From contig DAOWLE010000025.1 in NCBI GenBank assembly GCA_030643545.1, forward strand, positions 1 to 26,909: a stretch of DNA of 26,909 nt, read 5' to 3'. The number at the start of each line of letters is the position of its first letter. Position 1 is the stretch's first letter. The notes under the pieces are model-generated. The model was not told the DNA's origin. It was given only the letters and a program-made list of their open reading frames with translations, and ran no database searches. The position numbers and the translations under genes are program-made. The DNA is from a bacterium. GTDB taxonomy: Bacteria; Patescibacteriota; Minisyncoccia; JAHIHE01; DAOWLE01. Of the stretch, positions 1,571 through 22,290 are shown piece after piece.

Positions 1571-1644
1571 TGAGCCCACGGGAGGACTCGAACCACCGAC
1601 CGACGGTTTACAAAACCGTTGCTCTACCACTGAGCTACGTGGGC
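1571..1644 (-). tRNA. tRNA-Thr (anticodon TGT)
   Basis: Reverse complement reads GCCCACG-TA-GCTC-AGTGGTA-GAGC-A-ACGGT-TTTGTAA-ACCGT-CGGTC-GGTGG-TTCGAGT-CCTCC-CGTGGGC-T. This is a canonical cloverleaf with anticodon loop UU-UGU-AA, with one U·U mismatch in the T stem. CCA is not encoded. Confidence 0.8.
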
Positions 1645-2237
1645 TTATCTTTCCCTATTTCTTCCAACTTTTTTTTCGCCTCTTTATCTTTAGAATTAAT
1701 TTTAAGAATTTGCTTAAAAGATTCTTTGGCGTCTTTATAATTTTTCTGCGCTAAATATAATAAGCCCAAAGACCGATATGTTCTAACATCGCGGGGATTT
1801 TTAATAATCGTTTCAATATATTTTTTTTCCTCAACAACAAACTGCTCTTTTTTTTCTTCTTTTTTCGGTTCCAGCCGTTTTTTTTCTGCTTGCTGAATTT
1901 CGAGTTGATTTTTTGAAAAGCGCGCTTTTGCTTTAAATTCTTTTTCTTTGTTTTTTAAAATTTGAATCCATTGCTCAAACCAGCTGTCAGATTTTAAGGC
2001 AATCGCTCTTAATTTTTTCAAAATCTTTTCTAATTTTATAACAACTGACCGAATAATATTATGATAATTAATTTTTTTAATTTTTTGAGAAATTTTTCCC
2101 GGTTTTTCAGCATGCTGAGCTAAGAACTGAATATCTTCTGCCGGCATATTTTTGAATTTAGAAATCTTGCGAAGAATAATTACCAAAATTCCTCCGATTG
2201 ATAAAATAATAATTAATTTAGCTATAAATTCGTACAT
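1635..2237 (-). CDS. membrane-anchored coiled-coil/TPR-repeat protein (hypothetical)
   Basis: 200-aa ORF with an N-terminal TM helix, a Lys/Glu-rich coiled-coil stretch and one TPR-like motif (LGLLYLAQKNYKDAKESFKQILKIN). Its stop overlaps the 5' end of tRNA-Thr by a few nt. Confidence 0.6.
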   Translation of the reverse strand: MYEFIAKLIIILSIGGILVIILRKISKFKNMPAEDIQFLAQHAEKPGKISQKIKKINYHNIIRSVVIKLEKILKKLRAIALKSDSWFEQWIQILKNKEKEFKAKARFSKNQLEIQQAEKKRLEPKKEEKKEQFVVEEKKYIETIIKNPRDVRTYRSLGLLYLAQKNYKDAKESFKQILKINSKDKEAKKKLEEIGKDKPT

Positions 2238-2241
2238 AAAT

Positions 2242-3036
2242 TTATTTCAGATTTTTAATTTCTTTAACAAAAAATCTCTTTTTATTCCCGTTTTCCAATT
2301 CCACTTCAACTTTTTTTGATAAAATAAAAAGATTTGTAATTTTTCCTTTGCCTTCCGGCGTTTTAATTAAATCGCCGATATTCGGCATTTCTTTTTTAAA
2401 TTCCTCGTATTGAGCCAATTCAAAATTTAAACAGCACATTAAACGGCCGCAAATACCGGAAAGCCGCTCGCTTCCGCGATGAGTCAACTGTTGTAAAAAC
2501 ATTGCTCTGCTGGAAATGCTTTCTAAATTATTTTTTTGAAAATTGCGACAGCAAAGTTCCCGCCCGCAAGGGCCGAACGCTCCCAAATTTCTCGCTTGAT
2601 CCCGCGAACCGACTTGCTGAAGTCGAATTGACCTTTGAAAATGGCTTGACAAATCCTTAACTAATCCTCTGAAATCAATCCGTCCGTCAGCTGTAAAAGC
2701 AAAAATTATCCGTGAACCGTCAAAGCTGAATTTAACATTGATTAATTTCATCGGCAAGTTATATTTTTTAATTAATTGGCGGCAAAATTCTAAGGCCTCT
2801 GTTTTCTTTTTTTGATAATGTTTGATTGTTTCTAAATCAGAATTAGTTGCTTTTCTTAAAATCGTTCCAGAAACTTTATCTGAAGAATTATTATCTTTTT
2901 TTATTTTTTCAATTTTTCCCCAATCTAATAATCCGTCAATCTCTGTGATAACTAAGTCATCAATTTTCAAACTTGAATCTTCGTTTTTTAAAGAGCAAGC
3001 CGCCTCCCAAGAATATATTTTAACATCAGTAAACAT
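2242..3036 (-). CDS. ricT: PSP1 C-terminal domain protein (YaaT/RicT-like)
   Basis: 264-aa ORF with the hallmark PSP1 motifs GPCGRELCC and GICGRLMCC, which are the Cys-rich Fe-S ligand motifs of the YaaT/RicT family. Confidence 0.8.
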   Translation of the reverse strand: MFTDVKIYSWEAACSLKNEDSSLKIDDLVITEIDGLLDWGKIEKIKKDNNSSDKVSGTILRKATNSDLETIKHYQKKKTEALEFCRQLIKKYNLPMKLINVKFSFDGSRIIFAFTADGRIDFRGLVKDLSSHFQRSIRLQQVGSRDQARNLGAFGPCGRELCCRNFQKNNLESISSRAMFLQQLTHRGSERLSGICGRLMCCLNFELAQYEEFKKEMPNIGDLIKTPEGKGKITNLFILSKKVEVELENGNKKRFFVKEIKNLK

Positions 3037-3048
3037 AATAAAAAAAAA

Positions 3049-3498
3049 TTAAATTTCATATCTCACGAACTCTCTTATTTGAATATTTTCCCCTAATTTT
3101 GAAATTTTTTCGTTAATCAAATCTTTTATTGTTTGGTCAGAATTTTTAATATAAGATTGTTCAAGTAATTCTTTTTTATCTTTTGGATTCATCGCCGCAA
3201 TATGCATTGTTAAATTATGGGCTAATTCTTTAAAAGCGTCGTTGCGAGCGACAAAATCCGTCTCGCAAACCAATTCCAAAAGGACGCCGACTTTTCCAGA
3301 ATTATGAATATACGATTCAATAATGCCAGCTTTGGTTTCTCTGTCCGCTTTTTTTTCTATTGACTGCGAGGTTTTTTGTTTAAGAAATTGAAGCGATTTT
3401 TCAAAATCTCCATCAGAAGAATCCAGTGCTTTTTTGCATTCAACAACAGAAGCACCAGTTTCCTCGCGTAATTTTTTAATTTGATCAGAATTTATCAT
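3049..3498 (-). CDS. tsf: elongation factor Ts, short form
   Basis: 149 aa. The N-terminal UBA-like motif LREETGASVVECKKAL matches LRERTGAGMMDCKKAL of E. coli EF-Ts. Core motifs GVLLELVCETDFVARNDAF and HIAAMNP are conserved. The protein is unusually short but has parallels in small-genome lineages. Confidence 0.85.
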   Translation of the reverse strand: MINSDQIKKLREETGASVVECKKALDSSDGDFEKSLQFLKQKTSQSIEKKADRETKAGIIESYIHNSGKVGVLLELVCETDFVARNDAFKELAHNLTMHIAAMNPKDKKELLEQSYIKNSDQTIKDLINEKISKLGENIQIREFVRYEI

Positions 3499-3663
3499 AA
3501 TAAGATTAAGATTGTTTTAATTATTTCAATGATAATTTTTAACAATCAGCTAAGTGATTTTTTTAATTTCTTTTTAGTGGGTTTTTAGCATAATGAAAAA
3601 ATCAAAATTTACTTGGTGAATTTAACAAACTTTTATCTAAGAACAAAACAGTTTTGAATTGTT

Positions 3664-4479
3664 TTACTGGGCAATGAAAAATATTTCATCAGCTTTTATA
3701 ACGCCACTTTTTTCAAAAACACCTTTTACAGTAAACGGCCAAGGCGGACCATTCCAATTTTTAAGCAAAGAATAAAATTCAGAAAAAGTATAATAATTAT
3801 CTACTATAAATTTTCCTTCATCATATACGCCCCTATAAAATTTTGTAGAATCAGCAGTTAACACTTTTACATTTTTAGACTCTGATTGAGTTTGTCCTTC
3901 AAAACTTTTATTAACTAAATCAAAACTTTCAGCATCAATAAAAATGCTTATATTTTCAGATTTACTTTTTTCTTTAATGCTAAAATAATTATCACTTTCA
4001 TCGGATTCTCCTGGCTTACCCTTTCTTACAAATACTTGAATTTTATAGTTATCTCCCATCTGTATCAAGTTATCTTCTGTATCAGTAAGATCCCAATTAT
4101 ACATACCTGTATTTGGAACTGAAAAAGCAATGTAATTAGCGAGATTCCATTTTCCTTCTTTAATAAGGTAAATATCAACTTTTTTTTCTATATTAAGAGA
4201 AGATTTCCATTTAATCTCATAATTATTCCCAATTATCCACTTTTCTCCTCCGTTGGGAGAAATTACTTTAATATAAGGTTCTGTTTCATCAACAATTTCT
4301 GATTCTTCTGACTCTTTTTCAATCAACGGTTTAGTAATTTCATTTCTATTTTTTCCCAATTCAGAACCGCCACCAAAATATTTCCAGCTTGCAAAGCCAA
4401 CCGTGCTGATGGCAACAACGCCGACAATGATAGCGATGATAAGATAGAGATTTCCTTTTTGAAAATTTTGATTGCTCAT
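3664..4479 (-). CDS. hypothetical membrane-anchored/secreted protein
   Basis: 271-aa ORF with an N-terminal TM/signal anchor (LYLIIAIIVGVVAISTVGFA). It is followed by an acidic linker and a predicted beta-rich ectodomain. No recognised catalytic motif. Confidence 0.55.
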   Translation of the reverse strand: MSNQNFQKGNLYLIIAIIVGVVAISTVGFASWKYFGGGSELGKNRNEITKPLIEKESEESEIVDETEPYIKVISPNGGEKWIIGNNYEIKWKSSLNIEKKVDIYLIKEGKWNLANYIAFSVPNTGMYNWDLTDTEDNLIQMGDNYKIQVFVRKGKPGESDESDNYFSIKEKSKSENISIFIDAESFDLVNKSFEGQTQSESKNVKVLTADSTKFYRGVYDEGKFIVDNYYTFSEFYSLLKNWNGPPWPFTVKGVFEKSGVIKADEIFFIAQ

Positions 4480-4557
4480 AATTTCTTACTTTCTTTATTC
4501 TAAAACTCAAAAGTTTTAGAAAGATAAAAATGATTAATTATTTATAAATATTTAAAA

Positions 4558-4953
4558 CTAAATCGTTTTCAATAATTCATCCATCTTTTTCACAAAAATT
4601 TCTGCTTTTTCAACAGCGTCTTGCGCGTCTTTTTTATTTATTTTAACTTCTTCTCTGTAATCAGCGTCTGTTCTTGCTTCTTGAACTACTGAAAGCATTT
4701 TTGAATAATTTTTATCAACTATTCCAGTTTTTACAAAATATTTCCTCCATAACAAGCCAATTCCTTGATGAGTTTTTGGCTCTTCTTTTTTAAAAATCAA
4801 AACCGCTTTTGCCGCATAAAACATAGCGTAATAAGCCCTTGAAACAGCGTCGCGATATTTTCCGGCTTTAAATAAAATTTGGGCAGATTCTAATTTATCT
4901 TTTGCCAATTTAATTCTCAATTTAGCAAATTCTTTTTTCTTTTTTGGTTCCAT
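4558..4953 (-). CDS. hepT: HEPN domain protein (putative toxin of HEPN/MNT pair)
   Basis: 131-aa all-helical ORF. Its start overlaps the end of the upstream nucleotidyltransferase gene by 37 nt. Family assignment rests on size, the YYAMFYAAKA helix and this genetic coupling. Confidence 0.6.
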   Translation of the reverse strand: MEPKKKKEFAKLRIKLAKDKLESAQILFKAGKYRDAVSRAYYAMFYAAKAVLIFKKEEPKTHQGIGLLWRKYFVKTGIVDKNYSKMLSVVQEARTDADYREEVKINKKDAQDAVEKAEIFVKKMDELLKTI

Positions 4954-5270
4954 AATTCTATTGCGTCTTTTTTAACATTTTCTAAAAAAGGAGTCCATTT
5001 ATTAAATTCTTTCTTTGGCAAAATCCGTGGAGAAATTTCCACCTCGTATTCAAGCATCGGATCAGTAGCCATTTCAATCATTTTTTTCCATTTTTCTCGG
5101 TTCGCTTTCTTGTTTGTAATTAATAAAATATCAAGGTCTGAATATTTATGATAATTTCCTCTTGCTTTAGAGCCAAAAAGCATCATCCTTTCTATAAGAG
5201 TCGGATAATTTTTTCTCAAATTATTTTTATAATCAGTTAAGGCTTTTTTTTCTTTGATATTAAGAGACAT
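4917..5270 (-). CDS. mntA: minimal nucleotidyltransferase (MNT, putative antitoxin)
   Basis: 117 aa with the GSKARGNYHKYSDLDILLI motif (GS...DxD, the pol-beta-like nucleotidyltransferase signature). Located upstream of and overlapping the HEPN gene. Confidence 0.75.
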   Translation of the reverse strand: MSLNIKEKKALTDYKNNLRKNYPTLIERMMLFGSKARGNYHKYSDLDILLITNKKANREKWKKMIEMATDPMLEYEVEISPRILPKKEFNKWTPFLENVKKDAIELWNQKRKKNLLN

Positions 5271-5290
5271 AGTAAAAATGATTTATGAAT

Positions 5291-6013
5291 TTATTGCTTA
5301 ATTTTATTTTTTGCTTCAATAATCGTATCCGAAACAACATCCGTCATTAATTTTAAAGCGCTGATTGCGTCATCGTTGGACGGAATTGGATAATCCGCTT
5401 TTGTCGGATCAGCGTCCGTGTCAGATAAAGCGATTATTGAAACGCCGGTTTTTTTCGCTTCGGAAACAGCTAATTTATCTTTGTTGATATCAATCACAAA
5501 AATTGCTTCAGGAATTTTTTTAAGAAATAAAATTCCTTCTAATTTGCCCCTCAATTTTTTATATTTCTTATCAAAATCCAATCGTTCTTTCTTGGTGTAT
5601 TTTTTAAACTCCTCAGATTTTCTTTTTTCTTCCATTTCTTCCAGAAATTTTATCTGTTTTAATATTACTTTAAAATTAGTAAAAGTGCCGCCAAGCCAGC
5701 GTTCAACAACATACGGCATTCCGCATTTTTCCGCCGCTTGTTTAACAATATCTTTGGCTTGTTTTTTTGTGCTGACAAATAAAATAATTCCGTTTTCTTT
5801 AATTATTTTTTTAACAAATTCCAAGGCCTCTTTTAATTTCTCTTGAGTTTGTTCAAGATCAATGATGTGAATGCTATTATGGGTAGTATAAATATAAGGA
5901 GCCATTTTTGGATTCCATCTTGATTTTTGATGGCCAAAATGAACGCCTGCTTTCAACATATCAGACATTGATATTTCTTTAGTTTTATTTTCAATTTTCT
6001 TTTCTTCTGACAT
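5291..6013 (-). CDS. rpsB: 30S ribosomal protein S2
   Basis: 240 aa with MLKAGVHFGHQKSRWNPKMAPYIY, the conserved S2 N-terminus, and a Lys-rich C-terminal tail. Sits upstream of tsf on the same strand, as in the canonical rpsB-tsf operon. Confidence 0.9.
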   Translation of the reverse strand: MSEEKKIENKTKEISMSDMLKAGVHFGHQKSRWNPKMAPYIYTTHNSIHIIDLEQTQEKLKEALEFVKKIIKENGIILFVSTKKQAKDIVKQAAEKCGMPYVVERWLGGTFTNFKVILKQIKFLEEMEEKRKSEEFKKYTKKERLDFDKKYKKLRGKLEGILFLKKIPEAIFVIDINKDKLAVSEAKKTGVSIIALSDTDADPTKADYPIPSNDDAISALKLMTDVVSDTIIEAKNKIKQ

Positions 6014-6120: not shown

Positions 6121-7035
6121 TCACAGCCATTTTTTATTTTTAAAATAAACTATCATAAAAATAAAAGTAATAATCATTATCAGAATCGCCCACCAGAAAT
6201 CGCAGAAACTTTTTATAAAAGGCATACTATGCATTAAATTCATTCCGAAAATACTGGCAATTAAAGTCAAGGGCAGCATAATCACCGAAAAAATCGTCAG
6301 AACTTTTAAGGTTTCATTAAATTTGTAATAAAACAGCGATTCGTTTGTTTTTTCAATCGCTTCAATCATTTCCTTGTGATTTTCCAAAGTATTCCAAACG
6401 CGGATATTTGATCCGATTACTTCCTGCGAATATATTTTTAAATCCACCTGACAGAATTTAGAAATAATTTTATCAAGAATTTCCAGAACCATTCTTTGCG
6501 GCTTGATTGTCTTGCGAAAATCAATTATATCTTTTTTAACAATGGAAATTTCGCTGATCATCTCTCGTTCGTTTCCCTGAAAAACCTCGTGTTCTATTTG
6601 ATCAATATTTTCGGCAATGTGGTCCAACATTGGTAAACGGGAGTCAATCATTTTGTCCAAAATTTGAAAAAGGAGAAAACCTGTTCCTTTTTCCAAATAC
6701 CGCTCTCTTAACTGATCATGAATATTACAATCGTCAAAAAATTTCCTCAATTGGGGAAGTTTTCCTGAATGGCTGGTGATAATCGTATCTTTAGTTAAAA
6801 GAATATCTAATTCAGTTGAAAAAGTTTCACGGGTTTCTTTTTCAAAAACCGGAAAATGCAAAACGATAAAAAGATAATCAGGATATTCGTCAACTTTCGG
6901 TCGCTTTAACGGCGGAAGATATTCCTTCAAAACAACCGGGGAAAAATTAAAATTTTTCCGCAAATATTCAATATCCAAATCCGTCGGCTTATTAATATCA
7001 ATCCATTTAACTTGTTTAGTTTTAATTGTTTTCAT
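6121..7035 (-). CDS. corA: CorA-family magnesium/cobalt transporter
   Basis: 304 aa. The C-terminal two TM helices carry the signature GMN motif (IFGMNLMHSMPF) and are followed by a basic tail. This is CorA architecture. Confidence 0.85.
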   Translation of the reverse strand: MKTIKTKQVKWIDINKPTDLDIEYLRKNFNFSPVVLKEYLPPLKRPKVDEYPDYLFIVLHFPVFEKETRETFSTELDILLTKDTIITSHSGKLPQLRKFFDDCNIHDQLRERYLEKGTGFLLFQILDKMIDSRLPMLDHIAENIDQIEHEVFQGNEREMISEISIVKKDIIDFRKTIKPQRMVLEILDKIISKFCQVDLKIYSQEVIGSNIRVWNTLENHKEMIEAIEKTNESLFYYKFNETLKVLTIFSVIMLPLTLIASIFGMNLMHSMPFIKSFCDFWWAILIMIITFIFMIVYFKNKKWL

Positions 7036-9952: not shown

Positions 9953-10396
9953 TTACTGTGTAACAAAACCAATAATTAGTTGTACGATCGCGTAAGATAA
10001 AGCGGCAATCAATAATCCGAAAAGAGCAGAGACCAACGCCTTTTTTGCATTCTCTACCTTTGTTTCATCTCCTCCGGCAGTTAGATAAGTCAAACCTCCG
10101 TAAGCGAACATAAAGATGGACATCAGAACAATAAAACCGACCACCCATTTAACAATTTTTTCAACAATTGTTATAAAATCAGTTTCAGTGCCGGCGTACC
10201 CGACATCGCCCGGGTTTGGCATTGTTAAGCCACTTCCTGAGCTGCTTCCCGAGCCGCTTCCTGGTATGGCATTCCCATACTGATCATAAGTCACAGCCTG
10301 AATATCAGAAACTAACGATAAACCAAAAACTGGTCCGGCTAATAATCCAAACATAAAAACAACCATCATTATTTTTCCAATTTTTCCCATTTTCAT
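9953..10396 (-). CDS. small secreted protein with TrbC/VirB2-like (T4SS-pilin-like) C-terminal double-TM domain (P1)
   Basis: The track ORF starts at 10411. The GGAGGTG there is better read as the Shine-Dalgarno for the ATG at 10396 (MKMGKIGK...). The product has a signal peptide/TM, a Gly/Ser linker and a C-terminal hairpin of two hydrophobic helices. That C-terminus carries the motif AYGGLTYLTAGGDETKVENAKKALVSALFGLLIAALSYAIV. The two downstream paralogs share this motif. Confidence 0.6.
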   Translation of the reverse strand: MKMGKIGKIMMVVFMFGLLAGPVFGLSLVSDIQAVTYDQYGNAIPGSGSGSSSGSGLTMPNPGDVGYAGTETDFITIVEKIVKWVVGFIVLMSIFMFAYGGLTYLTAGGDETKVENAKKALVSALFGLLIAALSYAIVQLIIGFVTQ

Positions 10397-10517
10397 TTTA
10401 TTCACCTCCAATCGCGTAATTTATTCCCGATTTTGTCGGGACTATAAATTACAGCGTCCCGCCCTTTTGGCTTAAACCAAAAGAGCGGGGCAACATTTTT
10501 TAATTTAGAAAATAAAA

Positions 10518-11393
10518 TTATCCCGCGAGAATATCAACCAATGTATTCACAATCGCGTACGCCAGGACAACAACTAAAAGTCCTAAAATAGCGTAAGTCA
10601 ACGCTTTTTTTGCTGTATCAGCTTTCTGCTGATCCCCGGCGGAAATCATATACATTGCCCCGCTTATAATAATCATTAAAATCGCGATTAAAATTACAAT
10701 TTTTAAAAGCCACTTAATTAAATCCTCAAGAATTTCAGAAAGCGGTTTGCTCGAAAGATTTACTGTTGAACCGCTGCTTGTTGATGCCGGTTCTTGAACA
10801 GTTATTCCGCCATTGCCTGTTGGAAGTTGTGAGGTTGTAGGAGTTGTGGGAATTGTGGGAGTTGTGGGAATTGCATTTGCGTTTGTTGGAAGCTGTGGAA
10901 CAGTTGAAGCTATTTGACAAGTTCCTTCGTAGCAACAAACACCACTAGTACAATGCCTTGGACCGCTTGGTACAACACTAACACCCCCCGTACATTCACT
11001 TATATCAATGCATTCTTGACCACCTACAGATTCGCAATCAGTTAGAGGAGGAGTTGAAGACGTTTTACATTTTCCATTAATGCAACCGTTCGGACAATCA
11101 TCCACTTTAAAAAGAGATTGATTACAATCACAAGTCATCCCCCCCCATCCTTTTTTACAACCAAATCTAACTGATTTTTGATTATTTTCAACGCAAAAAG
11201 CATAATCGTAATTGTTTTCGTCGTCGCAATCATCACGGCTACCAGCGCACCAATCATTAGCTGTCATTCCATCATAAGTAATATTATTATCACTACAACG
11301 ATAATCTTTAGCAGAAACTTTCTCTCCCACTCCCAAAATTCCCAAACAACTCACCATTAAAATTAAAGTAAATAATAAAATTTTTTTGTTCAT
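10518..11393 (-). CDS. secreted Cys-rich protein with Pro/Thr linker and TrbC/VirB2-like C-terminal double-TM domain (P2)
   Basis: 291 aa with a Sec signal peptide (cleavage near VSA-KD). The ~140-aa domain has about 20 Cys (KDYRCSDNNITYDG...GCKKGWGGMTCDC...). A PT-rich linker (IPTTPTIPTTPTT) follows. The C-terminus carries GAMYMISAGDQQKADTAKKALTYAILGLLVVVLAYAIV. The N-terminal domain is paralogous to 11848..13083. Confidence 0.65.
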   Translation of the reverse strand: MNKKILLFTLILMVSCLGILGVGEKVSAKDYRCSDNNITYDGMTANDWCAGSRDDCDDENNYDYAFCVENNQKSVRFGCKKGWGGMTCDCNQSLFKVDDCPNGCINGKCKTSSTPPLTDCESVGGQECIDISECTGGVSVVPSGPRHCTSGVCCYEGTCQIASTVPQLPTNANAIPTTPTIPTTPTTSQLPTGNGGITVQEPASTSSGSTVNLSSKPLSEILEDLIKWLLKIVILIAILMIIISGAMYMISAGDQQKADTAKKALTYAILGLLVVVLAYAIVNTLVDILAG

Positions 11394-11400
11394 AAAACAA

Positions 11401-11439
11401 TGATTTATGATTTAAGATTTATGATTTACGAATGATTTA
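11401..11439. repeat. gatttaYgattta repeat between the P2 start and the 3' end of the four-helix-bundle gene
   Basis: tgatttatgatttaagatttatgatttacgaatgattta lies 7 nt upstream of the P2 ATG and overlaps the last codons (FVNHKS*) of the four-helix-bundle gene. An inverted copy lies at 11823-11845 on the other side of that gene. Confidence 0.7.
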
Positions 11440-11798
11440 GTTTTTTGAATTAATCCTTGTAAAAGTTGATGAGCTGAATTTATTTGATCTACTAATTTAT
11501 TAAAATTTTCTTCGTTAAGATAATTGACATCTTTAGCGATCAAAATTTGGTTTTTTAATTCAATCAAAGAACCTTGCGCAATATAATAAAACTGGACTTT
11601 TTCTTTATAAGTTTGTCTTCCAAATCCTTCAGCAATATTCGATGTGATAGAGACAACTGCTCTTCGCATTTGACTGACTAATCCGAATATTTCTTCTTTC
11701 GGAAATTCCTTTGTGATTTTATAAACTAAAATTACTATTTGATGTCCTTCTTGCCATGTTTTTAAATCTGTAAATGATTTTATTTTTTGATTATTCAT
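11412..11798 (-). CDS. four-helix-bundle protein (23S rRNA intervening-sequence protein family)
   Basis: 128 aa with DLKTWQEGHQIVILVYKITKEFPKEE...SQMRRAVVSITSNIAEGFGR..YKEKVQFYYIAQGSLIEL. These are the characteristic helices and the WQ..h/NIAEG motifs of the TIGR02436 / 23S_rRNA_IVP family. Confidence 0.75.
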   Translation of the reverse strand: MNNQKIKSFTDLKTWQEGHQIVILVYKITKEFPKEEIFGLVSQMRRAVVSITSNIAEGFGRQTYKEKVQFYYIAQGSLIELKNQILIAKDVNYLNEENFNKLVDQINSAHQLLQGLIQKTKSFVNHKS

Positions 11799-11822
11799 AA
11801 ATCGTCAATTCCTTAATCCTAT

Positions 11823-11845
11823 TCTTAAATCATAAATCGTAAATC
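11823..11845. repeat. inverted copy of the gatttaYgattta repeat, upstream of the four-helix-bundle gene
   Basis: tcttaaatcataaatcgtaaatc is the reverse complement of the repeat family found at 7042, 11401 and 22273. Together with 11401-11439 it brackets the four-helix-bundle gene as an inverted pair. Confidence 0.65.
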
Positions 11846-11847
11846 TT

Positions 11848-13083
11848 CTATTGAACTCCCAAAATATCTTTTAACTCCGTAATAATTGACCAAGATAAAA
11901 TAACAACTCCCAGTCCCACAACAGCGTAAAGAATTATATTTTTCGCTTTTTTAATTCTTTCCTCGTCGCCGGCAGAAGTAATATACATTAATCCGCCGAT
12001 AATTAAAAATAAAATTGCCAAAGAAACCACAATTCCCAAAATCCAATTGATAATTCCCATAATCAGCGCCTCAAAACTATCAGTGCTTAAAGGATTATTA
12101 AACCTAACCGCTCCGCCACTACCACCAGTATTGCTTCCACCCATACCACCTCCATTATTAACCGTTCCTCCGCCGCCCTCGTTACAATCAGAACCAGAAA
12201 CACAACGAATTTTTCCTTTGGATTTTCCATTACATGTTCCTTCGCAACTACTTGGTCCGCATATTTCAGCTTCTTGATTATCACATTCATCATCAGGATT
12301 ACAACCAATATTTATCCAATAACAAGGATTTGGAGTAGTTGTTGAAATAGGATTACATTGCCCTATACAACAAACTCTACTACCAGAACATCCTGATACG
12401 TCTAATTTTTCTTGCGAACATGTATTTTTATTTAAATCACAACAACTTCCTCCTGCGTCAGAACAAGTTTGAGTTTTTGGAACACAACTTTCTGGCTGAC
12501 AACAAGTACCGCTGGAACATTCTCTCGGACCTTCAAATACAACTTTTGAACAATTATTTGTTCTCAAATCACAACATATTTGACCACTTACAGATTCGCA
12601 CTTACAATATTTTTCCTTACAACAAAAACCGCTGGAACATTCTCTCGGACCACTTGCTACAAAACCGCTACAGTCTTTCTCATCACAACATACTTGACCG
12701 CTTACAGATTCGCAAGCAGTCGCCGGAGGAGTTGAAGACATTTTGCATTTTCCATTCACGCAACCGTTCGGACAATCATCCACTTTAATAAAACTACAAT
12801 CACAAGTCATCCCCCCCCATCCTTTTTTACAACCAAATTGAACTGATTTTTGATTATTTTCAACGCAAAAAGCATAATCGTAATTGTTTTCGTCGTCGCA
12901 ATCATCGCCCCAAATGCCTCCTGCGCACAAATCGTTAGCTGTCCTCCCATTATAAGTAATATTATTATTATCACAACGATAATCTTTAGCAAAAATTTCT
13001 CCCCCCACTCCCAAAATTCCGAAACAGCTCGCCATTAAAATTAAAGTAAATAAAAAGTTTTTGTTTTGAAATAAATTTTTCAT
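11848..13083 (-). CDS. secreted Cys-rich protein with duplicated Cys modules, Gly-rich segment and TrbC/VirB2-like C-terminal double-TM domain (P3)
   Basis: 411 aa. A signal peptide is followed by an N-terminal domain near-identical to P2. Nucleotide blocks around 12780-13020 and 11100-11340 are almost identical. Internal repeated modules are CESVSGQ(V/I)CCD...GPRECSSG(F/T)CC. The run GGGGTVNNGGGMGGSNTGGSGG is Gly-rich. The C-terminus carries GGLMYITSAGDEERIKKAKNIILYAVVGLGVVILSWSII. Confidence 0.65.
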   Translation of the reverse strand: MKNLFQNKNFLFTLILMASCFGILGVGGEIFAKDYRCDNNNITYNGRTANDLCAGGIWGDDCDDENNYDYAFCVENNQKSVQFGCKKGWGGMTCDCSFIKVDDCPNGCVNGKCKMSSTPPATACESVSGQVCCDEKDCSGFVASGPRECSSGFCCKEKYCKCESVSGQICCDLRTNNCSKVVFEGPRECSSGTCCQPESCVPKTQTCSDAGGSCCDLNKNTCSQEKLDVSGCSGSRVCCIGQCNPISTTTPNPCYWINIGCNPDDECDNQEAEICGPSSCEGTCNGKSKGKIRCVSGSDCNEGGGGTVNNGGGMGGSNTGGSGGAVRFNNPLSTDSFEALIMGIINWILGIVVSLAILFLIIGGLMYITSAGDEERIKKAKNIILYAVVGLGVVILSWSIITELKDILGVQ

Positions 13084-13123: not shown

Positions 13124-14026
13124 TTAAAAAATCAAACTAAAATAAATATCTTTTATAATTTCTCCCCAGAGCATCATTATAATCGTTGCCGCGACTAAGA
13201 AGGGTCCAAAAGGAATCTGGCTTTTGATAGATTTTATTTTTAAACCGATGAGAATTAAACCGATTGCCGCGCCCAAAATAAAAGCAAGGAATAGAGCAAA
13301 AAGAATATTTGGCCAACCGAGAATAAGTCCCATTAAAAAAGCCAATTTAACATCGCCAAATCCCATCCATTGACCTTTTGATATTAAAATTATTAGAAAG
13401 AAAAATCCAGCGGCGATGATAGCAGAGAAAATAGTATTTAGTATATCGTATATTGTATATTGTATAAAAATACCAGATACTAAATACCAGATACTAAATA
13501 CCAAAATAGCTGGAAAAATTATTTTGTCTGGAATAATGTAATGTTTTAAATCGTATACAAAAATTACTATTAGAGAACAAAGAATGAAAAGCAAAGAACA
13601 AAAAGCAATGAACAATGAACAGAAATTTAAAAGATTGTCATTCCCAACTTGATTGGGAATCCAGGCAGATAAGAAATGATTTGAATACTGGATTCCCGCC
13701 TGCGCGGGAATGACAGAAGAAGCGGGAATGACAGAAGAAAAAAAACCTAAAAAATTAAAAAATAAAACAAACAATATTCCTGTTCCTATTTCCACTAATG
13801 GATACTGAATTGAAATTGGTTTTCCGCAGTATCGGCATTTGCCAAAAGTGGAAATAAAACTTAAAATCGGAATCAAATCAAACCATTTCAAATTTTTTTT
13901 ACAATGCGGACAGCGCGAGCGAGAGAAAAAAAATTCTTCTTTTGTTTTCAAACGGCAGATAACAACATTTAAAAAACTGCCGACAATAAGCCCGAAGATA
14001 AAAATAAAGAAAGAAATAACAAACAT
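13124..14026 (-). CDS. pilD: prepilin peptidase (A24 family) carrying an in-frame repeat-derived insertion
   Basis: 300 aa. The N-terminal Zn-binding tetracysteine motif is CPHCKK...CRYCGK. The LNVVICRL and YPLVE motifs are present. The catalytic region VYDLKHYIIPD is followed by the downstream multi-TM A24 domain (GFGDVKL). About 45 extra residues (SSVIPASSVIPAQAGIQ...) lie between TM2 and the first catalytic Asp. These are encoded by the palindromic repeat at 13635-13740. Confidence 0.8.
   Translation of the reverse strand: MFVISFFIFIFGLIVGSFLNVVICRLKTKEEFFFSRSRCPHCKKNLKWFDLIPILSFISTFGKCRYCGKPISIQYPLVEIGTGILFVLFFNFLGFFSSVIPASSVIPAQAGIQYSNHFLSAWIPNQVGNDNLLNFCSLFIAFCSLLFILCSLIVIFVYDLKHYIIPDKIIFPAILVFSIWYLVSGIFIQYTIYDILNTIFSAIIAAGFFFLIILISKGQWMGFGDVKLAFLMGLILGWPNILFALFLAFILGAAIGLILIGLKIKSIKSQIPFGPFLVAATIIMMLWGEIIKDIYFSLIF
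13635..13740. repeat. palindromic GGAATGACAGAAGAA-type element inserted in-frame inside pilD
   Basis: ttgtcattcccaacttgattgggaatccagg...ctggattcccgcctgcgcgggaatgacagaagaagcgggaatgacagaagaa. Palindromic arms are attccca/tgggaat and ttcccgc/gcgggaa, with a duplicated gggaatgacagaagaa unit. The architecture matches the intergenic copy at 9826-9880. On the coding strand it translates as FFFSSVIPASSVIPAQAGIQ. Confidence 0.7.
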
Positions 14027-14027
14027 A

Positions 14028-14534
14028 TCAATAGTATCCTCCTTTTAAAACATAAGCTCCGCCAAATTCCAACCAACAGCCAAGATAATATCCGCAGCAT
14101 CCTTTTCCAGTGCAATCGCCGCCGATGTTTTCGTCGCAGTCCGGCTCATACCAATAATAATAAGCGGAATTATTAAAAGGATCTTTTGGAAGTATTCTAA
14201 TAATTTGATTGTCAGTAACTAATTTATCCCAAATTCCGCTGGTAACAGACCAATTATTTCCAGAGCAAGGACAAGTTCCGCATGTTCCCATACTGCTGTC
14301 GCATCCACCTTCTTCTGGATATTTTCCGGCTGCCGGATTGTCATAATAATAAATGTCTAATGCTTTTTGAATTTCTGCCAAATCAGTTTTCCGTACAGCG
14401 TCACGCGCTTTTTTCTGGGCATTGCCGACAGCAATAAAAACAACCATCGCCAGCATAGCAACAATTGTTATCACAAATAATACTTCTATAAGAGTAAAGC
14501 CAGTTTTTTTATTTGTATTTTTTTTGTTTTTCAT
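14028..14534 (-). CDS. prepilin-type (class III signal) Cys-rich pilin/pseudopilin
   Basis: 168 aa with KKTGFTLIEVLFVITIVAMLA. This is the G|FTLIE prepilin cleavage/methylation motif with Glu+5, then the hydrophobic alpha1 helix. The globular domain has 9 Cys and a Tyr-rich C-terminus. The gene abuts the pilD start by 1 nt. Confidence 0.8.
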   Translation of the reverse strand: MKNKKNTNKKTGFTLIEVLFVITIVAMLAMVVFIAVGNAQKKARDAVRKTDLAEIQKALDIYYYDNPAAGKYPEEGGCDSSMGTCGTCPCSGNNWSVTSGIWDKLVTDNQIIRILPKDPFNNSAYYYWYEPDCDENIGGDCTGKGCCGYYLGCWLEFGGAYVLKGGYY

Positions 14535-14565
14535 TTGGATTTTGAAATCTCCCCTTTTATTTAAT

Positions 14566-14595
14566 TAGCGGAGTAGGAATTTCCCCGCTCCGCTA
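14566..14595. other. GC-rich hairpin (tagcggag...ctccgcta) between the two pilin genes; possible terminator/attenuator
   Basis: 8-bp perfect stem with a 14-nt loop, downstream of pilin 14645..15079 on the minus strand. There is no clean U-run, so terminator function is uncertain. TATAAT-like sequences follow at about 14603-14612. Confidence 0.35.
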
Positions 14596-14644
14596 AATAA
14601 AAATATTATATAATCCTCGCGAGAATTTTAAATGAGAATTAAAT

Positions 14645-15079
14645 TTAATAACAAGCGCCATTAGAGCAAGTCCATGTTCCGGATTTAAGCGCTCCTGTCA
14701 GAGTATAACTAGTTACAGTTCCAGTATATTTGTAATTAGTAGCAGTTACTGGATGATCAGGCAAACGTTGGATATAAACCGTAGCGCCAGTAGAATCTTG
14801 TAATTTAAAACCGCTACAAATATTACCATTTGTAGCAGCACTGGCAATAAGACCATCAGCGCAAGTACCAACACCAGCTTCATATTCAGAATTATCCGCG
14901 TAATACATTTCCATTCCCAACATAATCTGGCTTAAATCTGATTTAACTTTCGCGTCGTTAGCTTTATTCCTCGCGTTATTTAAGGAAACCAAAACAATCG
15001 TCGCTAAAAGACCGATAATGGCGATAACAACCAAAAGCTCAATTAAAGTAAAACCTCGCTTATTTGTTTTTAACATCAT
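14645..15079 (-). CDS. pilA: type IV major pilin candidate (prepilin-type N-terminal domain)
   Basis: 144 aa with KRGFTLIELLVVIAIIGLLATIVLVSL, a canonical class III signal with G-1/F+1/E+5. Has a C-terminal disulfide loop (CSNGAC), small size and a Ser/Thr/Gly-rich domain typical of major pilins. It is the first gene after pilC. Confidence 0.8.
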   Translation of the reverse strand: MMLKTNKRGFTLIELLVVIAIIGLLATIVLVSLNNARNKANDAKVKSDLSQIMLGMEMYYADNSEYEAGVGTCADGLIASAATNGNICSGFKLQDSTGATVYIQRLPDHPVTATNYKYTGTVTSYTLTGALKSGTWTCSNGACY

Positions 15080-15107
15080 TTATTTCACCTCCCCTCGTTG
15101 AAAAATT

Positions 15108-15204
15108 AAAATCCAAAACAAAAAACAAAAAAATAAATTAAAAGTTAAAAGTTTTTGGTTTTTTGAATTTATTTTTGGCTTTTTTGTTTTTTGTTTTGGA
15201 TTTT
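15108..15204. repeat. perfect 26-bp A/T-rich inverted repeat with 46-nt spacer between the pilC stop and the pilin start
   Basis: aaaatccaaaacaaaaaacaaaaaaa at 15108-15133 is the exact reverse complement of tttttttgttttttgttttggatttt at 15180-15204. The repeat abuts the pilC stop codon at 15205. Confidence 0.8.
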
Positions 15205-16410
15205 CTACATTCCTCCCGCAATACCGTAAATCGGTAGAAGAATCGCCGAAACCATAACTCCCACTCCTATTCCCATCATAACAATTAAAACCGGTTCAAT
15301 CAATGTGGATAAATTATCAACAACATTATTTACTTCTCTTACGTAAAATCGCGCGATATTATCTAAGATTGAATCCAATTTTCCCGAGCGTTCACCGATA
15401 TTGATCATCTGAACAACTATCAGCGGAATTTCCGGACTCTCTCCTAAAACTTTGGCTATAGAGGTTCCGGACTTTACTTTTTCCGCTGTTTTAAAAATTA
15501 AATCTTTAAAAACTTCATTGCCGATAACCGATCCGGTGATTTGCAAAGAGCGGACAATCGGAACCCCGCCTTTGATTAAAGTGCTTAAATTTTCCGAAAA
15601 ACGGACTAAAGCAATTTTTCTAAAAAGTTCTCCCATTACCGGTAGTTTTAGTTTCATTTTATCCCAATTCATTTTTCCTTCCGGAGTATCAACATACCGT
15701 TTAGTTCCAATTCCCACTGTTATTCCAAAAACAATTAGAATCCATCCATAATATCTAAGAAAATGACTTGAAGCAATTAACATCTTAGTTGTGATTGGCA
15801 ATTCTTGTCCTGACTCTTCTATAATAGCGGTTAACTGAGGAATAACATAAACCATAACAATTATTCCAACGGCAAAAAACGCAAGCAAAATAAAAGCAGG
15901 GTAATACATTGCCCCTTTAATTTTATTTTCTAAATCATATTGTTTCTCTACGTGCTCAGCCAGATAAAGCAAAGATTCCTGAAGATTTCCGGAAACTTCT
16001 CCGGCTTTAATTAAATTTACATAAAATTCAGAAAATACTTTAGGATGTTTTGATAGAGAGTAAGAAAGCGATCGCCCTCCTTCTATATCATTGGCTATCT
16101 CAAAAATTTTTTCTCTAAAAAACGCATTGCTTGTCTGTTTATGCAATGTTTTCAGCGCTTCAAGCAAGGTAATTTTCGCTTCAATCAAAGTAGCCAATTG
16201 CCTTGAAAAAATCACCAAGTCCTTTGCCGGAACTTTTTGGAGAAACTTAATATTACGGAACAAAGCCGAAACTTCCACTATTGAAACAATAGAAATAACA
16301 ACTAATTTATGTGATTGAAGCGTTTCTATCGCCGCGGCTTCGTTTGAAGCTTCAACTGTGCCGCTTTGCATTTCGCCTTTTTCATTTTTTGCCTGATATT
16401 TAAATTTCAT
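15205..16410 (-). CDS. pilC: type IV pilus assembly platform protein PilC (GspF family)
   Basis: 401-aa polytopic membrane protein with two T2SSF-like cytoplasmic domains (…FSRQLATLIEAKITLLEAL…; …LSTLIKGGVPIVRSLQI…) and C-terminal GIGVGVMVSAILLPIYGIAGGM. It overlaps pilT by 4 nt. Confidence 0.85.
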   Translation of the reverse strand: MKFKYQAKNEKGEMQSGTVEASNEAAAIETLQSHKLVVISIVSIVEVSALFRNIKFLQKVPAKDLVIFSRQLATLIEAKITLLEALKTLHKQTSNAFFREKIFEIANDIEGGRSLSYSLSKHPKVFSEFYVNLIKAGEVSGNLQESLLYLAEHVEKQYDLENKIKGAMYYPAFILLAFFAVGIIVMVYVIPQLTAIIEESGQELPITTKMLIASSHFLRYYGWILIVFGITVGIGTKRYVDTPEGKMNWDKMKLKLPVMGELFRKIALVRFSENLSTLIKGGVPIVRSLQITGSVIGNEVFKDLIFKTAEKVKSGTSIAKVLGESPEIPLIVVQMINIGERSGKLDSILDNIARFYVREVNNVVDNLSTLIEPVLIVMMGIGVGVMVSAILLPIYGIAGGM

Positions 16411-17489
16411 TGTTTATTTTTCAAAAGCATTTTTAAATCCTTAGGATTAAGTGAGTAAAGCTCCGCATTTTGGCGAGATATCTCGCCTTTTTCAACAAGA
16501 TTTGCTAAAGATTTATTAAGAGGAAGCATTCCTTCTTCGGAACTTGTTTCAATAACCAAATCCAACTGGTGAGTTTTATTTTCCCTGATTAAATTTCTTA
16601 TTGCCGCGTTAGCAAGCAGAATTTCCGTTGCCGGAATTCTTCCACCGTCAACGCGGGGAACAAGCCGCTGAGAAACAATTCCCTGAAGGCTGCTGGCTAA
16701 TTGCGCTCTAATTTGAGATTGTTGATTAGCCGGAAAACTATCAATAATTCTGTCTATTGTCTGAGCGGCATTATTAGTATGAAGAGTGGCAAAAACCAAA
16801 TGACCTGTCTCCGCGGCAGTCACCGCTGTTGATATTGTTTCCGGATCTCTCATTTCTCCAACCATAATCACATTAGCGTCTTCCCTAAAAACAGATCTCA
16901 AAGCAACATGAAAAGAACGGGAATCGTGATAAATTTCCCTTTGAGAAATAATGCATCTGTCTTGAGTAAAAACATATTCAATCGGATCTTCAATAGTAAT
17001 TATACAATCATTTCGGTTATGATTAATTTCATCTATTAAAGCGGCTAAAGATGTTGATTTTCCATGGCCGGTTGGTCCGACCATCAGAACAAAACCTTGT
17101 TTAAGCTTGGTAAATTTGTGAATAATAGGCGGCAAATTTAATTCTTCAACAGTTCTAATTTCCGAAGGAATTAATCTTAAAGAAGCTCCGACATATCCTT
17201 TTTGGCGGAAAATATTAACTCTAAATCTTGCTCTTTCTTCAAAATTATAAGAAAGGTCAATTTCTTTGTCTTTTAAAAACTGGTCTTTTTGTTTTTCATC
17301 AAGCAGAGCAAAGCATAATTCCTCGGCGTGTCCCGGAGTTAAAATTTCTTTGTTTGTTAAAGGAATTAATTTGCCATCAATTCTTAAAATAGGATATCGC
17401 GCTATTGAAATATGAAGATCTGAAGCGCCTTCTTTTGCTGTCATTTCCAAAAGTTCGTTTAATTCTTTTTTAATTTCTAATGAATCCAT
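16407..17489 (-). CDS. pilT: type IV pilus retraction ATPase PilT
   Basis: 360 aa with a Walker A box GPTGHGKST, the Asp box ITIEDPIEY, Walker B MVGEMRD, the His box HLVFATLHTNNA and the PilT-type AIRNLIRE motif. Confidence 0.9.
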   Translation of the reverse strand: MDSLEIKKELNELLEMTAKEGASDLHISIARYPILRIDGKLIPLTNKEILTPGHAEELCFALLDEKQKDQFLKDKEIDLSYNFEERARFRVNIFRQKGYVGASLRLIPSEIRTVEELNLPPIIHKFTKLKQGFVLMVGPTGHGKSTSLAALIDEINHNRNDCIITIEDPIEYVFTQDRCIISQREIYHDSRSFHVALRSVFREDANVIMVGEMRDPETISTAVTAAETGHLVFATLHTNNAAQTIDRIIDSFPANQQSQIRAQLASSLQGIVSQRLVPRVDGGRIPATEILLANAAIRNLIRENKTHQLDLVIETSSEEGMLPLNKSLANLVEKGEISRQNAELYSLNPKDLKMLLKNKQ

Positions 17490-17495
17490 ATAATA

Positions 17496-17612
17496 AATTT
17501 AAATATTAAATATCAAAATGTAAAATGACAATGTAAAATTAAAAATTAAAAATTAAAAATTTTTCAATTTTGATTTGTTATTTTGATTTTTGATTTTTGC
17601 ATTTTAATTTTT
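17496..17612. repeat. imperfect palindromic intergenic element, copy B
   Basis: aaatatcaaaatgtaaaatgacaatgtaaaatt...aattttgatttgttattttgatttttgattttt. Fills the whole spacer between the pilT start and the stop of the upstream small ORF. Confidence 0.7.
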
Positions 17613-17936
17613 TTAGTACGGCAAAAATGGATTTGGTCTTCCAGTTTGGCCCGTTTTTACCGGCAAATCTCCGTGGCTGCGCAGATCTTTGAACTGCGTA
17701 CTTTCTAAAACTTTTAAATCCAATTCCGTGGAAACCAATCCTTCGCTTGGCAAAGACTCGTTCTTTCCATCTAAATAAGGAAAATTTTCATTGTTTGTTT
17801 TAGAAATTGTTTCAGCTGGTTGATTAGATGTTTTCGGCCCTGAAAAATTCCAAATAAGAACTATTGCCATTATTAAAAGGCAAGTTACTAAAATAATCGC
17901 TAAAATTTTTTGTTTTTTTTCTTCTTGAGAAGCCAT
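17613..17936 (-). CDS. small membrane protein (hypothetical), embedded in pilus operon
   Basis: 107 aa with an N-terminal TM (ILAIILVTCLLIMAIVLIW), then a Pro/Ser/Thr-containing soluble tail. It is flanked on both sides by copies of the palindromic element. No homolog recognised. Confidence 0.5.
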   Translation of the reverse strand: MASQEEKKQKILAIILVTCLLIMAIVLIWNFSGPKTSNQPAETISKTNNENFPYLDGKNESLPSEGLVSTELDLKVLESTQFKDLRSHGDLPVKTGQTGRPNPFLPY

Positions 17937-17939
17937 AAT

Positions 17940-18140
17940 ACAAATTTAAAATTTAAATATCAAAATGTAAAATGACAGTGTAAAATTCAAAATTGACTAA
18001 TGTTAAAATGGTTTTTAAGTTTACCCTGTTAAATAAAATCTTTGATTTTCTTTCACCAAAGGCGAAAGACTTAACAGGGTAAATTCCATTTTAACATTTT
18101 GATTTGTCATTTTGCATTTTGATATTTGCATTTTGATTTT
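17940..18140. repeat. imperfect palindromic intergenic element, copy C, with nested hairpin insertion
   Basis: Same outer cores as copies A, B and D, plus the ttgactaatgttaaaatggttttt block shared exactly with copy A. It contains the nested perfect palindromes tgttaaaatgg/ccattttaaca (18001-18011 with 18086-18096) and tttaccctgttaa/ttaacagggtaaa (18020-18032 with 18071-18083). Confidence 0.7.
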
Positions 18141-18141
18141 T

Positions 18142-19884: not shown

Positions 19885-19885
19885 T

Positions 19886-20494
19886 TTATTGATAATAGAC
19901 TTTTAACCTAATACTGTAAGAAAAATTATCAGACACTTCTTCCTCTTCAGAGGAACCGGAAGAGCTGGAAAAATTAATGGATGTTATATCCATAATTCTA
20001 ATATTGTTTTCTAAACTTCTAAGATAATTTTTAAAATTTTCATAACTGCCGGTTAAATTTATATCAATAGAGACAGATCTAGTTTGTTCAATAATATTTT
20101 GCTGGTCTGCTGTTTCTAAAGAAGACGCTGCATTATTTTCAGAAGTTGTTTTGTTCTGCGCGCTCTGCTGTATTTTGCTAAAATTTGATGATTCAAATAT
20201 CATTCCATTTTCCGAAGCTAAAGCTTCAAGCTGAACTAAAACATTAGGAATTTCCGCTTTATTCGGCAAAGCGTAAAAAACTTTATTTACCCGGCCTTCT
20301 ATATCTTCATATTGATTAACTAATTTCTCAATATCAAAAACTAATTTCTGTTTTTTTTCAAGAGTATTTTCTTTTGTTTCTATTTTCTGCGCAAGATTTT
20401 TTATTTCACCATAGGTTGGCTGAACAAACCATAATAATGCCGCAATAATGCCAATCATCGCAATGGGCAAAATAAGAATTTCTACAAATTTCAT
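19886..20494 (-). CDS. pilO: type IV pilus biogenesis protein PilO-like
   Basis: 202-aa bitopic protein (N-terminal TM, coiled coil, periplasmic domain). It sits directly downstream of pilN and 1 nt upstream of pilB, in canonical pilMNO order. Confidence 0.65.
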   Translation of the reverse strand: MKFVEILILPIAMIGIIAALLWFVQPTYGEIKNLAQKIETKENTLEKKQKLVFDIEKLVNQYEDIEGRVNKVFYALPNKAEIPNVLVQLEALASENGMIFESSNFSKIQQSAQNKTTSENNAASSLETADQQNIIEQTRSVSIDINLTGSYENFKNYLRSLENNIRIMDITSINFSSSSGSSEEEEVSDNFSYSIRLKVYYQ

Positions 20495-20535
20495 AATATT
20501 TTTGTTAAAAATTTAAAAGTTATATTTCTCTGTCA

Positions 20536-21078: not shown

Positions 21079-21081
21079 GAT

Positions 21082-22269: not shown

Positions 22270-22272
22270 ATT

Positions 22273-22290
22273 AAAATGATTTATGATTTA
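22273..22290. repeat. gatttaYgattta repeat immediately upstream of the pilM start
   Basis: aaatgatttatgatttac lies 4 nt upstream of the pilM ATG and overlaps the stop of the giant upstream gene. Confidence 0.6.

Follow-up and report, generated by a model that had tools for sequence, protein, structure and literature searches.

Two classes of HEPN-MNT modules are among the systems closest to the gene pair described here. In the type VII toxin-antitoxin (TA) systems HepT/MntA, a minimal nucleotidyltransferase (MNT) with the motif GSX10DXD AMPylates the tyrosine of the RX4HXY motif of DUF86-type systems (PMC11586414, PMC7641770). Examples are known from Shewanella (SO_3166/3165), Aphanizomenon and Legionella (PMC7641770, PMC11586414). 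For the AF0298-type HEPN-T proteins it was reported that the motif retains its Arg but has lost its His, while a second conserved His N-terminal to the motif possibly forms an alternative active site; MNTs were proposed to nucleotidylate a conserved C-terminal Tyr (PMC3710099). We examined an MNT-HEPN gene pair located between the translation genes rpsB and tsf of a bacterium of the Patescibacteriota. The analysed stretch, called the window in the following, comprises 26,909 nt (assembly GCA_030643545.1, contig DAOWLE010000025.1, positions 1 to 26,909).

It is likely that the rpsB-tsf gap is a hotspot for accessory genes. A surface-protein gene would be its resident, and a promoter-less, TA-like MNT-HEPN cassette would have been inserted between the rpsB stop codon and the conserved 5' module of this gene. 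All coordinates are window positions, and L-numbers are labels of compared contigs or loci. The genes of the interval are:

5291-6013, minus strand: rpsB (ribosomal protein S2), upstream anchor of the interval (PF00318, E 2.5e-86; TIGR01011, 289 bits)
4917-5270, minus strand: MNT, 117 aa (PF01909, E 5.9e-11)
4558-4953, minus strand: HEPN protein, 131 aa (PF05168, E 2.2e-23)
3664-4479, minus strand: membrane-anchored surface protein, 271 aa
3049-3498, minus strand: tsf (short EF-Ts, 149 aa), downstream anchor (TIGR00116, 117.7 bits against a cut-off of 104; PF00889)

The MNT gene comes first and overlaps the HEPN gene by 37 nt (4917-4953). Arrangement, strand and coordinates, including those of rpsB and tsf, agreed with an initial annotation made from the sequence alone.

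Probable insertion between rpsB and tsf

Outside the clade formed by the window, L001 and L042, rpsB and tsf were adjacent in 24 of 24 other fetched two-gene loci, with gaps of about 15-530 nt. The nearest outgroups (L002, L018 and L019, 62% rpsB identity) show the order rpsB-tsf-PSP1(-TPR). The close clade itself consists of the window, L001 and L042/L043, which are roughly equidistant, with nucleotide identities of 91-93% for rpsB and 89-90% for tsf. Compared with L001 and L042, homology continues to the rpsB stop codon (window 5290) and picks up again at 4553 (L001) or 4538 (L042). By blastn, window 6845-5290 corresponded to L001 123-1679 and window 4553-4351 to L001 1678-1881. A second restart of homology lies near tsf, at 3526 for L001 and 3625 for L042. 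The segment specific for the window strain is:

4554-5289, about 736 bp, minus strand: insert of a 20-nt leader, MNT, HEPN and about 4 nt, missing in L001 and L042 (blastn and junction sequences)

It begins directly after the TAA of rpsB and ends about 4 nt past the TAG of the HEPN gene. The empty junctions of L001 and L042 are alike, with one related repeat copy each. Because the pair is absent from two genomes of about 90% identity with clean breakpoints and like empty junctions, we conclude from these comparisons that it was probably acquired in the lineage of the window by a single-strain insertion. The acquired insertion proposed by the initial annotation is supported in this respect: window 5289-4554 is missing in both relatives, and related genomes lack the pair between rpsB and tsf, which speaks against an ancestral presence.

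The junctions were also found in an independent assembly. Logan contig L017 (SRR13892599) is 100% identical over 2,047 nt covering the 3' end of rpsB, MNT, HEPN and the 271-aa gene; hence these junctions are not an artefact of one assembler. A further contig, L032, covers tsf-PSP1.

No terminator was predicted between rpsB and tsf. The leaders of the cassette are short (20 nt after rpsB; 23 nt after rpsK in L033, see below) and lie behind unrelated genes, and so the cassette is most simply regarded as promoter-less and read through. Co-transcription with rpsB, as expected by the initial annotation, is plausible in view of the 20-nt gap and the lack of a predicted terminator.

Family assignment of the MNT-HEPN pair

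The MNT was recognised by PF01909 with 43 bits (cut-off 21). Its motif GS-X10-DXD can be read directly from the translation as G33 and S34, ten residues, and D45, L46 and D47, which confirms the minimal nucleotidyltransferase with a GSKARG...DLD motif. The best solved relative is 9xbd_E of the PDB (E 4.7e-6; full-length match, residues 15-105). With the NCBIfam model of MntA (NF047752) 28.4 bits were reached, below the cut-off of 60. Among the PADLOC profiles, a full-length match to PDC-S09 (PDLC04903, E 2.2e-22) and a weak match to PDC-M05A (E 4.9e-7) were detected.

The HEPN assignment likewise held in profile searches. PF05168 matched residues 11-125 with 83.1 bits against a cut-off of 22, and the same domain was carried by 87 of 87 HEPN homologs. 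The best solved relatives are PDB 2hsb (AF0298, UPF0332; E 1.3e-13) and 9xbd_A (E 5.8e-10). The entry 9xbd is a solved HEPN-MNT hetero-complex, and its two partners are matched by the HEPN protein and the MNT of the window, respectively. In the family alignment (n=25) no variation occurs at S38, R39, Y41, Y42, H62, R94 or F120, and the conservation of D98 and Y99 is 90% or more. H62 is the only His of the protein, and the local sequence at the conserved Arg reads R94-T-D-A-D98-Y99. Y99 aligns to a Tyr of 2hsb and 9xbd. Between 9xbd_A and 9xbc this Tyr is changed to Phe, which is consistent with, and no proof of, a probing of this residue by the depositors. The HepT models (PF01934, and NF047751 of NCBIfam) gave no match with the HEPN protein; as positive control, a fused protein of L040 was recognised by the NCBIfam models with 77 bits (MntA) and 57.8 bits (HepT).

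Compared with type VII HepT/MntA, the pair of the window is similar in the MNT gene upstream of and overlapping a small HEPN gene, in the motif GS-X10-DXD and in a conserved Tyr beside a conserved Arg. In contrast, its HEPN protein belongs to PF05168 and not to DUF86/PF01934, Y99 stands where the motif His would be, and H62 is the sole His. The pair lacks two of the defining characters of this type, the RX4HXY motif and matches to the family models at their cut-offs. The designation as classical MntA-HepT in the initial annotation is therefore not retained. With AF0298 (2hsb) and 9xbd the pair shares SRAYYAMF, a conserved His N-terminal to the R-x3-D-Y motif and a minimal nucleotidyltransferase as partner. 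It differs from them by an identity of only about 30-40% and by its host, a bacterium with a tiny low-GC genome and not an archaeon or thermophile. The description of AF0298-type HEPN-T fits the protein: R94 and H62 are invariant, no His follows R94, and Y99 is conserved. Judged by sequence, the pair is a module of HEPN-T (PF05168, AF0298/UPF0332) and MNT, since every tested feature of this class was found. The HEPN protein is the predicted toxin, and the MNT the predicted antitoxin and AMPylase.

The following mode of action is proposed for this module. The HEPN protein would be a small helical RNase-type toxin with a non-canonical active site of R94 and H62. The MNT would be made first, and its translation would be coupled to that of the HEPN protein via the overlap of both genes. 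It would bind the HEPN protein and probably AMPylate Y99 beside R94, by which the HEPN protein would be kept inactive. With a conserved Tyr beside the conserved Arg, AMPylation is the natural model of neutralisation; the conservation of Y99 and the Tyr-to-Phe variant 9xbc lend it indirect support. Both genes would be transcribed by read-through from rpsB.

A different function of the pair is possible, but somewhat unlikely. The genes might serve anti-phage defence of the abortive-infection type, or encode a two-subunit nucleotidyltransferase with the HEPN protein as substrate-binding subunit. The MNT resembles PDC-S09, a defence candidate consisting of a single MNT-like gene, over its full length, and such candidates (PDCs) are reported to be enriched in small-genome symbionts including Patescibacteria (PMC12988326). 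PDC-M05 has the architecture of a nucleotidyltransferase with a HEPN protein; the antiviral role of both PDC-S09 and PDC-M05 is unvalidated (PMC12988326), and the HEPN protein of the window matched no PADLOC profile. Makarova et al. (2009) left room for a role other than TA, such as the nucleotidylation of small molecules (PMC2701414). The lack of the canonical catalytic motif and the toleration of an orphan HEPN gene in L034 would suit such functions, but the invariant polar residues R94 and H62 speak more for catalysis than for the role of a passive subunit (PMC3710099). Moreover, defence and TA roles are not mutually exclusive.

The resident surface-protein gene and TA genes at its boundaries

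The 271-aa protein has one N-terminal transmembrane helix (residues 10-32), a disordered part (33-66) and two beta domains in the AlphaFold model (pLDDT 77.5), in line with the membrane anchoring that was noted before. The first beta domain is Ig-like (Kre9_KNH, E 1.2e-5). Searches for the function of the ectodomain gave only generic matches to the Ig-like fold and no identification of the C-terminal domain. The gene and its surroundings are divided as follows:

4480-4553, minus strand: conserved 5' module of about 75 nt, including the palindromic TCTAAAAC-TTTTGA-GTTTTAGA at 4498-4520
about 4283-4479, minus strand: anchor and linker, conserved across the family
about 3664-4282, minus strand: ectodomain block, unique at this slot, 58% identical to P0089 (upstream of rpsO in another organism)
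3609-3628, minus strand: leftover of the ancestral gene terminus '...KFTE*' (TTGTTAAATTCACCAAGTAA), no longer coding; in P0105, P0117 and the gene of L001 the aligned 3' ends are coding

The initial annotation had counted this gene as part of the same insertion. This could not be confirmed: a gene sharing this 5' module and anchor is present in the rpsB-tsf slot of all three close genomes, so the 271-aa gene is resident and was not inserted together with the MNT-HEPN pair. The slot genes of L001 and L042 share the upstream module and the initial 43-65 codons with it and encode unrelated ectodomains, one PsbP-like (L001) and one of another type (L042). Homolog searches identified a family which shares 'QKGNLYLIIAIIVG...ASWKYFGGGSELEK', with two alternative linker types and many ectodomains. 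Most members end in '...QILSTFKFTE'. In the window, as after P0089 in L037, the non-coding remnant of such an end lies about 40 nt past the new stop codon, which indicates that the ectodomain block of the window replaced an older one. The members were found in the following gene orders:

rpsB, member, tsf: window, L001, L042
rpsK, member, rpsD: L044, L055
member, rpsO: L036-38
member, fused MntA-HepT, rplU: L039-41

The positions of the family genes are:

window: 3664-4479 (minus strand)
L001: 1753-2457
L042: 1245-2366
L044: 6001-6933
L055: 1324-2406
L054: 183-1082 and 2839-3738
L036: 2532-3401
L040: 2245-3087 (same assembly as L001)

The 5' module precedes members in the rpsB slot (L001, L042), upstream of rpsO (L036-38), in the rpsK slot (L055) and in L054, and in L033 it persists as a remnant after the HEPN gene. 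Its hairpin was not distinctive compared with shuffled sequences (z -0.98), and as the stem is invariant, covariation offers no test. In L054 a GC-rich insertion of about 90 nt (67-157; …GTCATTGCGAGCGAAGCGCGGCAATCCC…), which looks like a miniature inverted-repeat transposable element or a repetitive extragenic palindrome, is located within the loop of the palindrome. A GC-rich stretch of similar type was seen in L001 at 5180-5428 (open reading frame ending '...SCLRRNDK').

Arrays of cassettes with conserved boundaries are known from the orphan C-terminal modules of polymorphic-toxin loci (contact-dependent inhibition, CDI, and Rhs) and from the gene cassettes of integrons. The surface-protein family is comparable in its conserved 5' part with interchangeable downstream blocks, in displaced remnants of gene ends and in addiction-type modules at the boundaries. 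In contrast to these arrays, no toxin domain was seen in the examined ectodomains (Ig-like, PsbP-like), no immunity genes were identified, the units are located inside ribosomal-protein operons, and the window contains no integrase, transposase or attC-like site.

Further TA genes were detected at the boundaries of these units. In L001 an overlapping pair of genes for proteins of 82 and 88 aa lies between the family gene and tsf (2565-3060). The 88-aa protein is weakly similar to RelE/YafQ/HigB (Pfam HigB, 3e-3; PDB HP0894, E 0.02), and the pair is flanked by a 43-nt repeat with 79% identity and an exact core of 20 nt. This repeat was considered as a duplication made by insertion, but it need not be one, because its core corresponds to the start of a decayed MNT gene (5' end) which is met again at many boundaries. 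A fused MntA-HepT protein of 279 aa, the positive control named above, is encoded between the family gene and rplU in L040 (3274-4113), and also in L041 and L039; it resembles the fused FhepTA type (PMC13000451). In L055 the end of a family gene is followed by MNT, HEPN, a 5' module with family gene and rpsD. L054 has the order family gene, a 70-aa gene with Fic, MNT, HEPN and family gene, with copies of the end '...FKFTE*' after the inserted blocks. The MNT-HEPN pairs of L054 and L055 belong to a different subfamily from the pair of the window. The window itself contains a remnant of a second MNT:

3529-3591, minus strand: directly before tsf, 63 nt left from the 5' part of a second MNT gene, now a pseudogene and of another subfamily; 54/63 positions agree with the first 63 nt (1-63) of the L055 MNT, which is intact

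None of 2000 shuffled sequences (0/2000) reached its score, and it contains three in-frame stops (MLKTH*KEIKKIT*...). From this remnant it follows that an earlier MNT(-HEPN) cassette was located in the rpsB-tsf gap, next to tsf. The A-rich element found after family genes is the 5' end of an MNT of the L055 type, and similar MNT 5' remnants, 45-75 nt long, are located behind the family genes of L042, L044, L037, L055, L001 and L040. The 20-mer CCAAAAAGAAATTAAAAAAA of this MNT 5' end is also the N-terminal coding sequence (MNQIYQKEIKKII...) of a gene for an SLT_2-like membrane protein after secY (L042 5823-5860; L001 about 6770-6803).

The boundaries are read as a permissive hotspot with gain and loss of TA genes rather than as a dedicated partnership, because equivalent positions are taken by TA genes of several unrelated families, and an intact TA is missing from some units. 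The opposite view, that MNT-HEPN pairs are functional partners which stabilise or regulate an array of surface-protein cassettes and that the three-gene unit is a real entity, can be based on their recurrent neighbourhood. Pairs are found directly upstream of the family 5' module in the window, in the rpsK slot of L055, in L054 and in L033 (there with the module remnant only); behind family genes, remnants of MNT 5' ends are present in the window, L042, L044, L037, L055 and L001, and in L040 a fused MntA-HepT follows a family gene. We consider such a partnership unlikely. The pairs belong to at least three subfamilies (AF0298 type, L054/L055 type and fused MntA-HepT), modules without MNT (RelE/YafQ-like, Fic) are located at equivalent positions, the family genes of L042 and L044 have no intact TA, and the cassette of L035 is located beside a clpB/C-like gene with no family gene.

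A wider generalisation can be put forward only tentatively and with low confidence. In this Patescibacteria-like lineage, the gaps of operons for ribosomal proteins and translation factors (rpsB-tsf, rpsK-rpsD, upstream of rpsO, rplU) might be landing pads for a modular surface system. Its 5' module, anchor and '...FKFTE*' 3' end would be conserved, the ectodomains would be exchanged by recombination, and several families of promoter-less TA cassettes would be gained and lost at the boundaries of the units. Diversification of the surface would then be driven by transcription of ribosomal operons and policed by addiction modules.

Mobility of the cassette and direction of the change

A close relative of the cassette was found in another slot. 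In L033, from another organism, it is located 23 nt after the stop codon of rpsK and upstream of rpsD, with 83% (HEPN) and 68% (MNT) amino acid identity, 77% nucleotide identity over window 5255-4475 and the same overlap of 37 nt. The occurrence of the same cassette at rpsK-rpsD shows that it is mobile. Upstream of the clpB/C-like gene, L035 carries a 60%-identical pair (58% for HEPN) with a 31-nt overlap. Direct repeats of 38 nt with 35/38 identical positions lie on both sides of this pair, a clearer case than the repeat of the window:

5273-5291, no strand: left copy of a 19-nt direct repeat flanking the insert, 16/19 identical to the right copy
4525-4543, no strand: right copy of this repeat

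The two copies have an exact 11-mer core and a spacing of 748. With a control value of p ~0.01-0.02 for AT-rich windows, they are only suggestive of a target-site duplication. This direct repeat is the only repeat bracketing the insert; no inverted repeats were found around it.

In L034 (684-1118) a HEPN gene of 86% identity with all conserved residues has no adjacent MNT. Its homology to the window begins exactly at the end of the MNT reading frame, and about ten codons at its start are replaced. Either an orphan toxin or a cassette in decay may be seen here. More distant relatives (31-42% identity) are located on cyanobacterial and Mycetohabitans plasmids, where they overlap annotated nucleotidyltransferase genes.

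Known vehicles of transfer were considered and rejected. For a phage, no matches (0) were obtained in a phage collection, and the relatives in IMG/VR are only 30-35% identical; plasmids carry only the relatives with 31-42% identity. Against an integron with attC sites or a transposon stands the lack of a recombinase domain in any reading frame of the window and of terminal inverted repeats; visual inspection also showed no agreement of the palindrome at 4498-4520 with the R''/R' cores of attC.

The reverse direction, in which the pair was ancestral to the clade of window, L001 and L042 and was precisely deleted in the latter two, for example by recombination between the short flanking repeats, is distinctly unlikely. 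As the three genomes are roughly equidistant, one gain and one or two losses are close in parsimony; remnants of other TA genes at the boundaries show that deletion is frequent, and recombination of the flanking repeats would remove the cassette cleanly. However, the empty junctions of two of the three genomes look identical and contain the repeat-like sequence only once, the relatives with 62% rpsB identity have tsf directly beside rpsB, and the cassette occupies a different slot in L033 and thus moves. A chimeric assembly, in which a TA-bearing contig was joined to the rpsB operon, is hardly conceivable: the source contig comes from a metagenome assembly, in which repeats such as the 5' and 3' modules could be joined wrongly, but the separate Logan assembly is identical across the junctions, L032 covers tsf-PSP1, and the breakpoints coincide exactly with a stop codon and a module boundary.

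Several points weigh against the interpretation of the pair as an acquired TA-like cassette. The Rx4-6H or RX4HXY motif, for which the initial annotation had proposed a check by alignment, is absent from the HEPN protein, and 0/25 homologs have a His at the motif position. The pair reached the cut-off of neither of the NCBIfam equivalog models HepT and MntA. Our literature search found no experimental work on the AF0298-type HEPN-T/MNT subfamily and no paper for 9xbd or 9xbc; it also gave nothing relevant on UPF0332 together with HEPN, nor on TA modules inside rpsB-tsf. An orphan HEPN gene as in L034 is awkward for a strong toxin, unless it is silent or neutralised in trans. The polarity, gain in the window or loss elsewhere, is based on parsimony among three roughly equidistant genomes and on an only moderately significant repeat. 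Finally, the composition of the insert gave no sign of a foreign origin and did not deviate from its neighbours, as a check of GC content and GC at third codon positions (GC3) revealed: values of GC/GC3 are 0.285/0.263 for MNT, 0.311/0.235 for HEPN, 0.317/0.278 for rpsB and 0.322/0.253 for tsf. Composition neither supports nor refutes an acquisition and fits a donor of similar composition.

As a predicted TA module, the pair adds a new member to the AF0298-type HEPN-T/MNT class, which is abundant, has received little experimental attention and lacks the canonical HEPN RNase motif. A bacterial example with clear comparative evidence of mobility provides a test case for the proposed site of R and H and for the proposed AMPylation of Tyr. 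The less ordinary part is the genomic setting, a core translation operon split by accessory cassettes beside a shuffled surface-protein gene, with different TA families at the same boundaries in related strains. If this is general, ultra-small symbionts may diversify their surface by using their strongest and least losable transcription units as safe harbours, and caution would be needed when rpsB-tsf adjacency is used as an invariant marker of synteny.

Other genes of the window

The minus-strand order around the insertion is CorA, rpsB, MNT, HEPN, the 271-aa gene, tsf, PSP1, TPR, tRNA-Thr, tRNA-Tyr and secY. Both tRNA genes are located between the TPR gene and secY, which is truncated by the start of the window, and a scan of the window with Rfam detected these two tRNAs and nothing else. 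The flanking protein genes are:

6121-7035, minus strand: CorA
2242-3036, minus strand: PSP1 (PF04468, E 1.4e-29)
1635-2237, minus strand: TPR protein (TPR_1)

PSP1, with or without TPR, also follows tsf in L001, L042, L002, L018 and L019. Since this order is kept at 62% rpsB identity (L002, L018, L019), it is the normal order of the lineage, and not a local replacement of pyrH-frr by PSP1/RicT and a TPR protein as initially suggested. The EF-Ts of 149 aa covers only the first half of TIGR00116 (positions 4-144 of 293). The protein is equally short in L001 and L042, with 149 aa each, and in L002, with 148 aa; L018 and L020 gave matches to tsf of similar extent.

At 11412-11798 (minus strand) a four-helix protein resembling those of 23S rRNA intervening sequences and bAvd (PF05635, E 9e-39) is encoded among three genes similar to type IV secretion system pilins or TrbC (9953-13083); no reverse transcriptase was seen in the window. 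The region 13124-26802 (minus strand) contains a complete type IV pilus set (prepilin peptidase, pilins, PilC, PilT, PilB, PilO and PilM), followed by a surface protein of 1503 aa with LamG, DUF2341 and PKD domains. This gene content fits an episymbiotic, possibly naturally competent lifestyle.

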